Source: Escherichia phage 121/2022-2B. From it: 64,000 nt of DNA. A program made the position numbers and the translations under genes. Positions 11,068-41,610 of this stretch are shown piece after piece. Location: sequence record OR958571.1; one strand, given 5' to 3'. Under the pieces are notes generated by a model. That model had not been told where the DNA came from and did not search any database. It saw only the letters and a list, made by a program, of their open reading frames with translations. Position 1 is the stretch's first letter, and every line of letters begins with the position of its first letter.

Positions 11068-11097
11068 ATAATACCACAGTTTGAACTTGTTGTAAAC
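11068..11097 (-). promoter_or_regulatory. T4-type early promoter
   Basis: Minus strand: GTTTACA, 17-bp spacer, TGGTATTAT extended -10; A/T-rich upstream tttcacaaag element. Confidence 0.6.
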
Positions 11098-11178
11098 AAC
11101 TTTGTGAAAAATATTTTAGGGAATGATAAGAAAGGAACGATAGCTTAGAATGGTAATATACAGAATGTGAGAAAGAAA

Positions 11179-11192
11179 GGCCCAGAGGGCCC
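11179..11192 (-). terminator. GC-rich palindrome followed by U-run (terminator-like) after nrdH
   Basis: ggcccagagggccc followed on the transcript by TTTCTTTCTC. Confidence 0.4.
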
Positions 11193-11195
11193 GTC

Positions 11196-11504
11196 TTAAT
11201 CTTCTATGATATCTCTATCATATCCAAGTGAAATGAGAGTTTCTTTGAAGTGTTTAATGTTCTTTTGTCTAGAATCATTAATGAAAATGACTGGATAGCG
11301 AATGTTAAGAGATGTGAATCCAGCGCGTTTAGCAAGAGATACAATCAGTGGACGATCATACTCAATCTTACCGTTATTTGTAAGAACTTTATAGAAAGTA
11401 AAAGGAGCATTAAGCTCCTTTAGAAGTTTTGTAACTGATTGACATCCAGGGCAACGACCTACTTCATCTGGAATTCCATAGACTTCAATCTTATTTTGTT
11501 TCAC
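11196..11504 (-). CDS. nrdH: glutaredoxin-like protein (NrdH-type redoxin)
   Basis: 102 aa; CPGC redox motif near N-terminus; position upstream of nrdG. Confidence 0.65.
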   Translation of the reverse strand: MKQNKIEVYGIPDEVGRCPGCQSVTKLLKELNAPFTFYKVLTNNGKIEYDRPLIVSLAKRAGFTSLNIRYPVIFINDSRQKNIKHFKETLISLGYDRDIIED

Positions 11505-11506
11505 AA

Positions 11507-11719
11507 CTATTCCTTACTAAGAGCAGCATTCAGCTTGTTAGTAATTTTATCCAGACGCTCATTAAACTCACTAGAAGATAAGCCCTTTTCTGGAGAAATT
11601 AAACTAATCACGAAAAATATAGCAATAAAAGGAATAAGGAAAATAGCTCCAACTGCCATAAACAGAAAGAATGTTACAGTTGTAAGAAAATCAGCTAAAC
11701 CTTTACGAAATTTATACAT
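11507..11719 (-). CDS. hypothetical small membrane protein
   Basis: 70 aa with one long hydrophobic segment (FLTTVTFFLFMAVGAIFLIPFIAIFFVISLI). Confidence 0.45.
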   Translation of the reverse strand: MYKFRKGLADFLTTVTFFLFMAVGAIFLIPFIAIFFVISLISPEKGLSSSEFNERLDKITNKLNAALSKE

Positions 11720-11837
11720 TTACATTTACCTTTAATTGATTAACCAAGCATTGATAAGCACTAAACTATATTGGGAATAAAATTCTGGACCAAAATGAAA
11801 AATCATATCATTTATAGTATCCATAATATAATTCAAT

Positions 11838-12308
11838 TTAATCATGTTTCCACACCCCATCGGTATTTGACCAAAGTCGCTGATTATCTGATCCTCGCCA
11901 CAGCTTTTTAGTCGGAAGATTTTTCTCATACTTCCCATCAATAATAACATCAACATATTTAAGCATTTCTAGTTGTTTAATATCTTCAAACTTATATCCT
12001 GTCCACAACCAAATGCTTTTATTGGGATAAAGATTTTTAATAGTTTGAACCACAGAGTGAATCACGTCTCTGTTATCAGGATAAAGAGGGTCACCTCCGG
12101 TTATAGTTAATCCTTCTATATAATCATTATTCAAACATTCAATTAATTGTTCTAGTGTTTCACCAGTGAATGGAATACCATTTCTAGCATTCCATGTTGA
12201 TTTATTATAACACCCTTCGCATTTATGCAAACAACCTGTAACGAAAAGAACGGTCCTGCAGCCAGGACCATTAACAAAATCGCAAGGATAAAATCTATCA
12301 TAATTCAT
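11838..12308 (-). CDS. nrdG: anaerobic ribonucleotide reductase activating protein NrdG (radical SAM)
   Basis: 156 aa; CxxxCxxC-type cluster GCLHKCEGC near N-terminus; start overlaps the nrdD stop. Confidence 0.88.
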   Translation of the reverse strand: MNYDRFYPCDFVNGPGCRTVLFVTGCLHKCEGCYNKSTWNARNGIPFTGETLEQLIECLNNDYIEGLTITGGDPLYPDNRDVIHSVVQTIKNLYPNKSIWLWTGYKFEDIKQLEMLKYVDVIIDGKYEKNLPTKKLWRGSDNQRLWSNTDGVWKHD

Positions 12309-14122
12309 TGGTGTTTAACCCTATGCATGATTTCTTTATTTTTGCCGAGATTAAATCCGCGTTCGTTCGGATTTCCCAAATAACCACATGTTCTTCTTAT
12401 TGTGTTCATCTTTTTAGGATCAGTTTCTCCACAAATAGAACAAACAAATCCGTTTTCAGTAGGAGTCATTTCATGGGTACTTCCACATGTAAAACATTTA
12501 TCTACTGGCATATTAACACCAAAATAATCTAAATGTTGTGCAGCATAATCCCATACGGCCTCAAGACCCTTTAAGTTATTTTTCATATCAGGAAGTTCAA
12601 CATAAGAAATGTGGCCGCCTGTCGCAATGAAATGATATGGTGCTTCGCGAGAAATCTTTTCAAACGGAGTAATATTTTCTTCTACTGAAACATGGAAACT
12701 GTTAGTGTACCAACCTTTATCGGTAACATCCTTTACACTTCCATATTTTTCGGTATCAAGTTTACAGAAGCGATAACAAAGGTTTTCAGCAGGAGTAGAA
12801 TACAAACTAAAAGCAAACCCAGTTCTTTCAGTCCACTGTTTAAGACGAGCATTCATTTTAGTTAAAATTTCCTGTCCAATATCACGACCGACAAGAATAT
12901 TCAATTCGTGAATACCAATGTATCCTAGAGACACTGAACTTCTGCCATTTTTAAATAACTCAATTATATCGTCATCAGGTTTAAGACGAACCCCGAATGC
13001 ACCTTCTTGGTAAAGAATAGGAGCAACAGTCGCTTTAACTCCTTTTAAGGAACTAATTCTACACATCAAAGCTTCAAAACATAAATCCATTCGCTCATTG
13101 AACAATTCAACAAATTTCTGTTCATTGAATTGTGTTCCAATATAAGAATCTAACGCGATGCGAGGAAGATTCAGTGTTACAACACCAAGATTATTACGTC
13201 CATCAAGAATTTCATTGCCAGTCGAATCTTTCCATACGCTTAAGAAACTACGGCAACCCATTGGAGAAACAGGAACAGATGAACCAGTGATAGCTTTATT
13301 GTTCTTAGCTGAAATAATATCAGGATACATCCTTTTGCTTGCACACTCTAGAGCAAGCTGCTTAATATCATAGTTCGGATCGTCTTTATAAAGATTAACA
13401 CCTTCTTCAACGAACATAACAAGCTTAGGGAAAATAGGAGTTATCCCATCACGACCAAGACCTTTAATACGATTTTTCAGAATTGCTTTCTGAATCATTC
13501 GTTCAGTCCAGTCAGTTCCCGTACCAAATGTAATTGTTACAAAAGGAGTCTGTCCGTTTGAACTAAAGAGAGTATTTACTTCATATTCATAAGCTTGGAA
13601 TGCATCGTATACGTCTTTTTCTGTTTTAGATTGAGCATAATTTAACGCATCAGCGATTTGCCATTTTTCTGCATCCTCAATATGTTTTGCATAGGTGCGT
13701 TTAACATAAGGAGAAAGTACTTTATCTACATTCGCAAAAGTCGTTCCGCCGTATTGGTGAGAAGCAACCTGTGCAGTAATTTGTGCCATAATTGCAGTAG
13801 CAACGCCAATTGATTTAGGAGTTTCAATCTGTGCATTACCTAGCTTAAATCCGTTTTCAAGCATTCCTTTTAAATCTACTAAACAACAATTAGTAAATGG
13901 AAGAGCAGGGGAATAATCAATATCATGGAAATGGATAATTCCGCTTTCATGCGCTTTCATAATAAAAGACGGGACCATATTTTTGGCAATGTGTTTAGAC
14001 ACAATACCAGCCATAAGGTCCCGTTGAGTTGGAAAAACACGAGAATCTTTATTAGCATTCTCGTTTAAAAGGTCTTTATTAGTTTTATGAATCAATCCTT
14101 CAATTTCTTTTTCAATTGTCAT
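12305..14122 (-). CDS. nrdD: anaerobic ribonucleoside-triphosphate reductase NrdD, uninterrupted
   Basis: 605-aa continuous ORF; C-terminal zinc-ribbon cysteines (CFTCGS...CSICG) and glycyl-radical motif RTCGYLG. Confidence 0.93.
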   Translation of the reverse strand: MTIEKEIEGLIHKTNKDLLNENANKDSRVFPTQRDLMAGIVSKHIAKNMVPSFIMKAHESGIIHFHDIDYSPALPFTNCCLVDLKGMLENGFKLGNAQIETPKSIGVATAIMAQITAQVASHQYGGTTFANVDKVLSPYVKRTYAKHIEDAEKWQIADALNYAQSKTEKDVYDAFQAYEYEVNTLFSSNGQTPFVTITFGTGTDWTERMIQKAILKNRIKGLGRDGITPIFPKLVMFVEEGVNLYKDDPNYDIKQLALECASKRMYPDIISAKNNKAITGSSVPVSPMGCRSFLSVWKDSTGNEILDGRNNLGVVTLNLPRIALDSYIGTQFNEQKFVELFNERMDLCFEALMCRISSLKGVKATVAPILYQEGAFGVRLKPDDDIIELFKNGRSSVSLGYIGIHELNILVGRDIGQEILTKMNARLKQWTERTGFAFSLYSTPAENLCYRFCKLDTEKYGSVKDVTDKGWYTNSFHVSVEENITPFEKISREAPYHFIATGGHISYVELPDMKNNLKGLEAVWDYAAQHLDYFGVNMPVDKCFTCGSTHEMTPTENGFVCSICGETDPKKMNTIRRTCGYLGNPNERGFNLGKNKEIMHRVKHQ

Positions 14123-40885: not shown

Positions 40886-40913
40886 TTTATTCTCCTCAGT
40901 AGTTGATAGGGTA

Positions 40914-40943
40914 ATAGTATCACTACCCTATCTAAAAGTAAAC
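40914..40943 (-). promoter_or_regulatory. T4-type early promoter (gatagggtaatagtatcac cassette family); -10 enclosed by inverted repeat gataggg/ccctatc
   Basis: GTTTACT, 17-bp spacer, TGATACTAT. Confidence 0.55.
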
Positions 40944-41195
40944 TCATTTTTTACGAAAAATTGATTTATTTTCTGCTGCCCATTTTTCAATAACTGCAGC
41001 CGGACCAGTAACAACAATTTTATCACCGTAATCTTCTGCGGCGAGTTGACCGAAATTATCTAATGCATCACGAAGAACTCCATGAGGCATTTCACCCATT
41101 TTATCTTTCTTGCCAGTGTAAATAAACTCAACTTTTACATCAGAAGATTCAGCGATAAATTCTTGATACGTTTTCATTTTATTCTCCAATTTCAC
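40944..41195 (-). CDS. internal-protein-like small protein with capsid-targeting leader
   Basis: 83 aa; N-terminus MKTYQEFIAES is a near-exact capsid-targeting sequence. Confidence 0.6.
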   Translation of the reverse strand: MKLENKMKTYQEFIAESSDVKVEFIYTGKKDKMGEMPHGVLRDALDNFGQLAAEDYGDKIVVTGPAAVIEKWAAENKSIFRKK

Positions 41196-41215
41196 ATTTG
41201 TTTTGATAGGGTAAT

Positions 41216-41244
41216 AGTATCACTACTAAAACCCCGTGTAAACA
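41216..41244 (-). promoter_or_regulatory. T4-type early promoter (same cassette family)
   Basis: GTTTACA, 16-bp spacer, TGATACTAT. Confidence 0.55.
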
Positions 41245-41262
41245 ACTTTGTGAAATTGTTTA

Positions 41263-41550
41263 TTACAAAAGATTTTTAGCAATAATCTTGAGATGTGCTG
41301 CAGAAATATGTTTAGCTTTAAACAACGCAGTTTCTTCGGCAGGAGAGATAACGATTGTAGCACCATCCTTTTTAGCAGACCACCCATCACCTAGGTAAAC
41401 AGTACCTTTGATTTCTTCGCCATCAACCAGACTAATCATTGGTTTACCTTCTCGTCCTTTATTTGCTTTAATAACTTCAGAAGTAAGAGTAGCTTCGGTA
41501 ATGGTAGAAAACCGGGTAGTTGTAGAAGTAAATTCTTTAAATGTTTTCAT
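41263..41550 (-). CDS. ipI: internal protein I-like (IPI position adjacent to 57B)
   Basis: 95 aa, the length of T4 IPI precursor; N-terminus MKTFKEFTSTT is a diverged capsid-targeting leader. Confidence 0.55.
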   Translation of the reverse strand: MKTFKEFTSTTTRFSTITEATLTSEVIKANKGREGKPMISLVDGEEIKGTVYLGDGWSAKKDGATIVISPAEETALFKAKHISAAHLKIIAKNLL

Positions 41551-41581
41551 TTTATTTTCCTAATTAATTTTGATGAGATAA

Positions 41582-41610
41582 TAGTATCACTACCTCATCA
41601 GCATGTAAAC
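41582..41610 (-). promoter_or_regulatory. T4-type early promoter (same cassette family); -10 enclosed by inverted repeat gatgag/ctcatc
   Basis: GTTTACA, 16-bp spacer, TGATACTAT. Confidence 0.55.

Follow-up and report, generated by a model that had tools for sequence, protein, structure and literature searches.

Early-promoter cassettes in the accessory region of a T4-like phage genome and their recombination joints in related phages

The 64,000-nt stretch of Escherichia phage 121/2022-2B analysed here (sequence record OR958571.1; the whole of it is called the window) is part of the genome of a Tequatrovirus, i.e., a T4-like phage. Its 20-28 kb portion is 97.8% identical to phages G4498 and RB18, its 36-44 kb portion shows ~96% identity to T4, and, by comparison with the T4 annotation, 9.5-45 kb is the counterpart of the T4 segment that runs from gene 55 to gene 4. 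The 9.5-45 kb block consists of early and middle genes on the minus strand, with many small accessory open reading frames (ORFs), and it contains 14 composite promoter cassettes, which are the subject of this study. An original prediction, made from the letters of the sequence, had proposed that at least 12 such promoters are reused in this region; the count is 14. Gene content and recombination joints around the cassettes were compared with seven relatives, namely T4, PST, RB18, ECML-134, F25, T6 and RB14.

The set was obtained by a one-mismatch scan together with manual inspection and comprises the 11 sites that match a strict motif (GTTTACW-N13-15-TGRTANNAT) as well as 26139 (with TATAGT), 37731 (no TG) and 33866 (ATTTAC). 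All 14 lie 27-60 nt before a Shine-Dalgarno (SD) sequence and an ATG on the same, minus strand. In the following description, subfamilies a and b are two groups of closely similar cassettes, RegB is the T4 nuclease whose recognition consensus is considered below, and z values of stems are relative to dinucleotide shuffles.

11068-11109, minus strand: P11097, with TTTCACAAAGTT, GTTTACA, a 14-nt spacer and TGGTATTAT; heads the 55.6 orthologue (ATG 11037); 99% conserved at T4 ~41.7 kb; a terminator-like UCU-loop hairpin (11178-11192) lies ~80 nt upstream.
18747-18776, minus strand: P18776, GTTTACT...TGGTATAAT; heads nrdC.4 (ATG 18718); small stem within the spacer (z -2.1).
21696-21756, minus strand: P21756, subfamily a; heads nrdC.8 (ATG 21698); embedded stem of -20.2 kcal/mol (z -6.1), the 3' arm of which covers the SD GGAGG.
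23129-23244, minus strand: P23195 module of terminator and promoter, subfamily a; heads nrdC.10 (ATG 23131); the terminator (23225-23244) is a UUCG hairpin, GGGAGCC-TTCG-GGCTCCC, with a run of six T; TTTCACAAA upstream and a RegB-consensus SD, GGAGAATAAAA.
26079-26139, minus strand: P26139, GTTTACA...TGGTATAGT; heads mobD.2 (ATG 26081); stem across the -10 (-19 kcal/mol, z -4.8); the SD is the RegB consensus with one mismatch.
26891-26984, minus strand: P26951 module of terminator and promoter, a variant of subfamily a; heads mobD.5 (ATG 26893); the terminator (26967-26984) is a UUCG hairpin, GTCTCC-TTCG-GGAGAC, with a run of six T.
31107-31166, minus strand: P31166, the regB early promoter; embedded stem of -21.4 kcal/mol (z -5.9), with the 5' arm in the promoter spacer and the 3' arm over the SD AAGAGGAG.
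33774-33866, minus strand: P33866, ATTTACT...TGATAGTAT, in the internal protein (IP) locus adjoining gene e; heads an Ip4-type internal protein (DUF7412) with the N-terminal capsid-targeting sequence MKTYQEF; in T4, PST and ECML-134 this cassette heads IpIII.
37277-37336, minus strand: P37336, GTTTACA...TGATATTAT; heads e.6 (ATG 37279); no convincing stem; replaced along with e.7 in PST, F25 and ECML-134.
37670-37731, minus strand: P37731, heads the variable gene e.7; AGA in place of TGn; stem ATAGGCTCAT/ATGAGCCTAT of 10-13 bp across the -10 (-19.1 kcal/mol, z -5.4).
37993-38080, minus strand: P38068, subfamily a with TTTCACAAA; heads e.8 (ATG 37995); GAAA-loop terminator (38209-38226) ~140 nt upstream.
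40883-40943, minus strand: P40943, subfamily b, with the SD GGAGAATAAAA, an exact RegB match; heads trna.4; stem GATAGGGTA/TACCCTATC across the -10 (z -3.95).
41175-41255, minus strand: P41243, subfamily b, with TTTCACAAAGTT and the SD GGAGAATAAAA; heads an IP6-like internal virion protein (40944-41177).
41548-41622, minus strand: P41610, a variant of subfamily b, with the stem GATGAGGTA/TATCTCATC (z -4.7); heads IPI (41263-41550), a nuclease inhibitor by its match to Pfam PF11634 (7e-54).

Within a cassette, an A/T-rich upstream (UP) element, often TTTCACAAA, is followed by a GTTTAC(A/T) -35 element, a 17-bp spacer and TGn plus TAnnAT; after the -10 come a conserved start region (CTATCAA), a short leader and the SD, which matches the RegB/S1 site GGAGAAUAAAA in half of the cassettes. 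The -35 is exactly GTTTAC in 13 cassettes and ATTTAC in one, the distance from GTTTAC to the -10 is 18 nt in all of them, and the -10 is extended by TG(G/A) in 13 of the 14, P37731 being the exception. The spacer of 16-17 nt given by the original prediction holds if it is counted from TTTACW to the -10 hexamer, whereas the literal distance from GTTTACW to TGRTA gives 0 matches. The conserved upstream sequence TTTCACAAA is present in eight copies against 2.3 expected, five of which abut GTTTAC, with A/T-rich upstream sequence in the other cassettes; however, the copy at 27359 lies inside the rI.-1 coding sequence and was rejected as a promoter element. Both of the proposed subfamilies exist, with three exact sites and one variant (26922) in a and two exact sites and one variant (41582) in b, but their longest exact identities (~21-24 nt) fall short of the 25 bp that had been claimed. 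A 20-nt sequence, TTGGAGAATAAAATGAAAAC, is common to nrdC.10 and an IP gene.

When the window was scanned, the strict motif gave 11 matches against 0.02 expected, all of them on the minus strand and spanning 11068-41610, and a relaxed form (GTTTAC-N17-19-TANNNT) gave 17, 15 of them on the minus strand, against 2.46 expected. The repeated promoter motifs are therefore present where they had been reported and far more often than chance would allow. A generic sigma-70 scan found no excess over shuffles (84 vs 80; 73 vs 64) and was dropped as evidence; since it resembles the shuffles, the signal is specific to the T4 consensus. The same scan is one of the few points in favour of the view that the matches are chance sigma-70-like sequences or MotA-dependent middle promoters, along with the intragenic location of two further sites and the true MotA-box promoter found at a GTTTAA site (43088). 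This view is extremely improbable and is refuted for the 14 cassettes by the motif statistics, with their complete strand bias, and by the lack of a MotA box, as well as by the good placement of all sites before start codons: the box, (a/t)(a/t)TGCTT(t/c)A centred at -30 and 11-13 nt before the -10, is found in none of the 14 cassettes, nor is its TGCTT core at that position. The two intragenic sites, 15404 and 10652, have an exact GTTTAC without TG and were set aside as doubtful, and 43088 was removed from the set as a middle promoter. The latter (43059-43088, minus strand), with AATGCTTCA-N12-TATAAT after GTTTAA, lies upstream of gene 1, encoding deoxynucleoside monophosphate (dNMP) kinase, and is superficially similar to a cassette.

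The early-promoter reading fits the published T4 early consensus as well as the position and orientation of the cassettes before orthologues of T4 early genes. T4 early promoters consist of UP, -35, TGn and -10 elements with extra consensus regions, and the early consensus of Liebig and Rueger and of Wilkens and Rueger has been reviewed by Hinton 2010 (PMC2988021); GTTTAC is located at -36 to -31 and an A-rich segment at -40 to -44 (Nolan et al. 2006, PMC1524935), and the regB promoter has been described as a typical early promoter (PMC3014915). The cassettes share with these promoters the GTTTAC, the UP element, TGn, a -10 with T-12, A-11 and T-7, and the start-site positions, as well as the location before early genes and small ORFs of unknown function. 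There is no substantive difference between the two, these being the same elements in a close T4 relative, recognised here by sequence. Moreover, all 14 cassettes are orthologous to syntenic T4 sites with 92-100% identity. The T4 GenBank record holds no promoter annotations, and a literature search for a genome-wide data set of T4 transcription start sites found none.

The 3' end conserved among many cassettes, GGAGAATAAAATG, corresponds to the RegB/S1 consensus GGAGAAUAAAA. RegB with S1 cleaves GGAGRAYARAA when single-stranded, in the ribosome-binding sites of early mRNAs, with GGAGAAUAAAA as the optimum (PMC1702504). Exact matches to the consensus are found at P23195, P40943 and P41243 (23131-23141, 40885-40895 and 41177-41187, all minus strand), and matches with one mismatch at P26139, P31166, P38068 and P41610. 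Many SD sequences, of the type GGAGAATAAAA, are therefore candidate RegB cleavage sites, and the presence of matches in half of the SD regions suggests that a cassette combines an early 'on' signal with an 'off' signal for RegB. For every conserved block a function is known, and these functions explain much of why the cassettes resemble one another. This speaks for a reading in which functional constraint, i.e., on the strength of the promoter, on the sequence transcribed first and on the binding of RegB/S1 and of ribosomes, is the only cause of the similarity, crossovers being incidental and without any drive toward shuffling; taken with the joints and statistics given below, that reading appears rather unlikely.

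Most cassettes also have a stem-loop, in the form of an upstream intrinsic terminator in two to four of them and a spacer-armed stem in six or seven. Strong embedded stems are found in six (P41610, P40943, P37731, P31166, P26139 and P21756; z -3.95 to -6.1), with the 5' arm in the promoter spacer and the 3' arm just past the -10, and weaker ones in two more; in P40943, P41610 and P37731 the entire stem lies upstream of the inferred start site. A UUCG hairpin with a T-run is located directly upstream only at P23195 and P26951, and only these two hairpins have the U-tract of an intrinsic terminator, which the embedded stems lack. Cassettes with upstream terminators do not have strong embedded stems. 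The statement that several promoters directly follow a UUCG or GAAA terminator thus holds for the two UUCG hairpins but was overstated, the GAAA hairpin being ~140 nt away. The same applies to terminator-promoter modules as brackets of single accessory genes: the cassettes concerned (e.8, e.7, IPI and IP6-like) have promoter-embedded stems and not canonical terminators.

Two other hairpin arrangements were seen nearby. An ORF at 38237-38710 (157 aa, phrog_2280, function unknown) lies between two copies, at 38197-38232 and 38754-38789, of a terminator hairpin with a GAAA tetraloop; the copies are 36 nt long and 94% identical to each other. The ORF is absent from T4, PST, T6 and RB14, and 38199-38232 is the site of several alignment breakpoints, an arrangement that resembles a gene module between terminators rather than promoters. 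Between e.6 and e.5, a GC-rich hairpin at 36662-36683, which has a UUCG loop if read on the minus strand, was scanned as terminator-like on the plus strand only, and no promoter cassette follows it.

In the relatives, five events have joints in or at cassettes (T4, RB18, T6, F25 and ECML-134), and three of these are chimeric cassettes resolved to the base. T4 corresponds to the window minus the IP6-like gene, the second IP gene of the locus, and its chimeric cassette joins the left part of P41243 to the right part of P40943, with a crossover zone of 20 nt (TGATACTATTACCCTATCAA). In RB18, which corresponds to the window minus IPI, the left part of P41610 continues into the right part of P41243, and the crossover zone of this chimeric cassette is 21 nt long (AATTTCACAAAGTTGTTTACA). 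In T6, 2.7 kb from Ip4 to vs.3 is missing, so that six non-IP genes between two cassettes are lost, and the joint passes from the upstream flank of P33866 into the P31166 core, precisely at the -35 that both have in common. F25 lacks e.7, with a joint directly after the P37731 stem. ECML-134 has two added genes upstream of nrdC.10, between one cassette of subfamily a and one of subfamily b, the latter near-identical to P41243; the insert, at 17130-17700, holds a small ORF and a gene for a DUF4031 protein, followed by the cassette of IP-locus type. In addition, the cassettes of RB14, PST and F25 show mosaic combinations of spacer and leader.

These observations speak against functional constraint as the sole cause. 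The three chimeras are independent and their crossover zones coincide with the longest shared identities, the mosaic spacer and leader combinations point the same way, and the IP-type cassette of ECML-134 lies upstream of nrdC.10, 18 kb away from the IP locus. They agree with the suggestion of the original prediction that such modules supply recombination homology, which is supported by the chimeric cassettes of T4, RB18 and T6, the ECML-134 insertion and the variable content between paired cassettes. Gene content between cassettes, when compared among the relatives, is not invariant. Among the genes that lie singly between two cassettes, e.7 and IPI are each absent from four of the seven relatives, the IP6-like gene from three and e.8 from none. 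Three of the four doubly bracketed genes, against 4 of 72 others, are absent from at least three relatives (hypergeometric P ~0.002, the threshold of at least three having been chosen post hoc), an enrichment that speaks against functional constraint alone. In a larger phage collection, the flanking gene 57B has 559 records and e.8 has 518, compared with 221 for the IP6-like gene, 163 for IPI and 158 for e.7, the last three thus being found in 28-40% of related genomes.

Taken as a whole, the data are best explained by sigma-70-dependent, T4-like early promoters in composite cassettes, between which crossovers occasionally take place, as in the early promoter plus stem-loop elements known as PeSL (or PeSL-like) elements; the probability of this reading is put at roughly 0.88. 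By analogy with T4, unmodified host RNA polymerase would fire the promoters right after infection, the stem-loops may act on read-through RNA from upstream units through attenuation or masking of ribosome-binding sites, and RegB would later inactivate the cassette messages. Because the same 20-70 nt blocks recur, crossover between cassettes is possible, and with the efficient homologous recombination of the phage it could occasionally occur from cassette to cassette; such a crossover would delete, insert or swap the gene or genes between two cassettes, mainly at the two IP loci and e.7.

Several points weigh against this explanation, or limit it. Promoter activity in this phage is deduced from sequence and orthology. 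In the e.7 replacement that distinguishes the window from PST, the two promoters belong to the swapped segment, and homology ends at the stop codon of e.8 and at the SD of e.6, so that the cassettes were rejected as conserved flanks of this swap. Breakpoints against five relatives fall within 50 bp of a cassette in 7 of 45 cases, which is more than uniform positions would give (1.9 expected, P = 0.003) but no more than a null model based on gene starts predicts (6.6 expected, P = 0.49). Genes headed by a cassette are not more variable overall (4 of 14 vs 16 of 62; Fisher P = 0.54), higher variability of these genes being unsupported at thresholds of at least one or at least two absences and emerging only at the post hoc threshold of at least three, and 10 of the 14 cassettes head genes that are found in all seven relatives. 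The fit to the gene-start null, the unremarkable variability and these ten conserved genes all favour functional constraint. Only a minority of cassettes is tied to variation, and many indels are homing-endonuclease insertions or fall in the cassette-free 49.x and tk.x blocks. Finally, diversifying selection acts on the IP genes as anti-restriction factors, and this selection alone could explain their variability (PMC12373910).

The last of these points can be extended to a reading of its own, in which diversifying selection on injected anti-restriction IP proteins retains rare recombinants and no mechanism specific to cassettes is involved. IPI matches a nuclease-inhibitor family, Ip1, Ip2 and Ip3 block one GmrSD enzyme each, a different one in every case (PMC12373910), and IP genes make up three of the four most variable cassette-headed genes. 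However, the non-IP gene e.7 shows the same pattern, and in T6 the six genes lost from between two cassettes are not IP genes; moreover, selection of this kind accounts for retention and not for joints inside cassette identities, and it is compatible with recombination between cassettes. As a substitute for such recombination it is unlikely. Still less probable is the reading in which homing endonucleases, and not cassettes, are the main source of differences in gene content across the region. Many indels relative to T4, PST, F25, T6 and RB18 do consist of mobB, mobC, I-TevII, mobD, segB or seg-like genes far from cassettes, but this leaves the IP loci, e.7, the T6 deletion and the ECML-134 insertion, which have their joints in cassettes, unexplained, and the two mechanisms have been described as operating in parallel (Comeau et al. 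2014, PMC4122927).

Recombination between early-promoter cassettes has precedents, and the consensus, the PeSL elements and the IP loci have all been published, so that the present finding is a correct rediscovery of what is already known. PeSL elements, cassettes of an early promoter and a stem-loop, were described as mediators of modular shuffling by Arbiol et al. 2010 (PMC2839356), who demonstrated promoter activity, terminator activity and mini-circles for those of RB49 and phi1; the mini-circles are a further argument against functional constraint alone. Comeau et al. 2014 (PMC4122927) extended PeSL to the T4/PST pair, with the consensus TTTACW-N17-TAYWAT, which matches the window cassettes. 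The two systems are alike in that an early promoter is combined with a stem-loop upstream of, inside or overlapping it, in hyperplastic regions and before small accessory ORFs, and in that some indels between close relatives have their joints in cassettes and single genes lie between two of them. They differ in that the RB49 and phi1 elements have near-perfect TTGACA/TATAAT and GGGG...CCCC stems, whereas the window cassettes have GTTTAC and AT-richer stems that vary from cassette to cassette; according to Arbiol et al. (PMC2839356), the T-even versions are analogues and not homologues. A further difference is that in the sample studied here there is no enrichment beyond gene boundaries.

PeSL-like elements on T4 early promoters at two IP loci are attributed to Repoila et al. 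1994 (EMBO J 13:4181) in the account given by PMC2839356. As far as that account goes, the IP loci of T-even phages are two small loci (57B to trna.4, and beside gene e) where phages exchange IP genes, every one of which follows a conserved early promoter and leader and starts with the capsid-targeting MKT(Y/F)(Q/K)EF, and the IP-locus element corresponds to subfamily b. At the locus beside gene e (33303-33866), the window lacks denV, ipII and ipIII of T4, and the Ip4-type gene (DUF7412) adjoins gene e. ECML-134 differs from the picture in that account by having an IP-type cassette outside the IP loci as well, upstream of nrdC.10, which indicates that this cassette type is not confined to IP loci, contrary to a suggestion by Arbiol et al. 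2010. The stems of the IP loci contain G.U pairs, as would be expected if it is the sense RNA that pairs, which is a point in favour of the RNA-level gates proposed below.

Integron cassettes are mobilised by an integrase acting on attC sites, and the morons described by Hendrix and colleagues in 2000 are said to move by illegitimate recombination. Both resemble the genes studied here in being lone accessory genes with their own promoter, and often a terminator, between conserved genes; by comparison, in the window it is repeated regulatory sequence that supplies the homology, and a dedicated recombinase is not evident.

Several features of the window lie apart from the cassettes. nrdD (12305-14122) is uninterrupted and has no I-TevII intron, unlike in T4, and mobB, mobC and mobD of T4 are absent. 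A cluster at 39103-39930 (minus strand) holds ten tRNA genes (Arg, Asn, Tyr, Met/Ile-CAU, Thr, Ser, Pro, Gly, Leu and Gln) compared with eight in T4, and there is no segB ORF inside it, whereas T4, PST and T6 have segB there. A 63-nt direct repeat (14619-14681 and 14832-14894, 83% identity) flanks a small ORF at 14636-14812 (58 aa, phrog_3272), of which F25 alone of the seven relatives has an intact copy; the repeat at 14619-14894 may be a partial duplication beside the pin gene.

The stems at regB and nrdC.8 form a special case among those embedded in promoters. Mosigvirus, Carettavirus and Winklervirus retain the pairing of the regB stem with arms that differ in sequence (z -3.8 to -6.6), and compensatory changes affect 6 of 14 pairs in the alignment fold; the stem is absent in one Gaprivervirus, EAWsc9. 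At nrdC.8, Dhakavirus keeps an SD-occluding stem with other arm sequences, whereas Mosigvirus and Gaprivervirus have a stem across the -10 instead. These conserved pairings suggest, as a tentative proposal, that embedded stems may be gates at the RNA level, beyond any role as terminators or recombination targets. With the 5' arm upstream of the genes' own start and the 3' arm on the SD, read-through transcripts of regB and nrdC.8 would be translationally silent, and translation would be limited to RNA from their own early promoters, which would be shut off after 2-3 minutes. In T4, translational gating by a promoter inside a hairpin is known for e, soc, 49 and I-TevI, where the promoters are late and translation is delayed (PMC3014915). 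The predicted hairpins of regB and nrdC.8 likewise have the 5' arm before the start and the 3' arm over the SD, but the promoter inside the hairpin is early and not late. A literature search found no description of an SD-occluding stem at regB, and promoter stems that are predicted to hide the SD of regB and nrdC.8 and that covary across genera are possibly new. If gating of this kind takes place, synthesis of the RegB nuclease would be limited to the first minutes of infection.

The value of the present analysis is confirmation of the cassettes in one more genome, to which it adds cassette-to-cassette joints resolved to the base in T4, RB18 and T6, and a seven-genome sample in which the association of indels with cassettes is no greater than that expected from gene boundaries alone. 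As the literature has already established, the cassettes provide T4-like phages with immediate and strong expression of small accessory genes, many of which are anti-defence genes, such as those for the injected IP nuclease inhibitors. Accessory genes can in this way, as is likewise established, be exchanged as ready-to-express units, which bears on the evolution of host range and on phage engineering.

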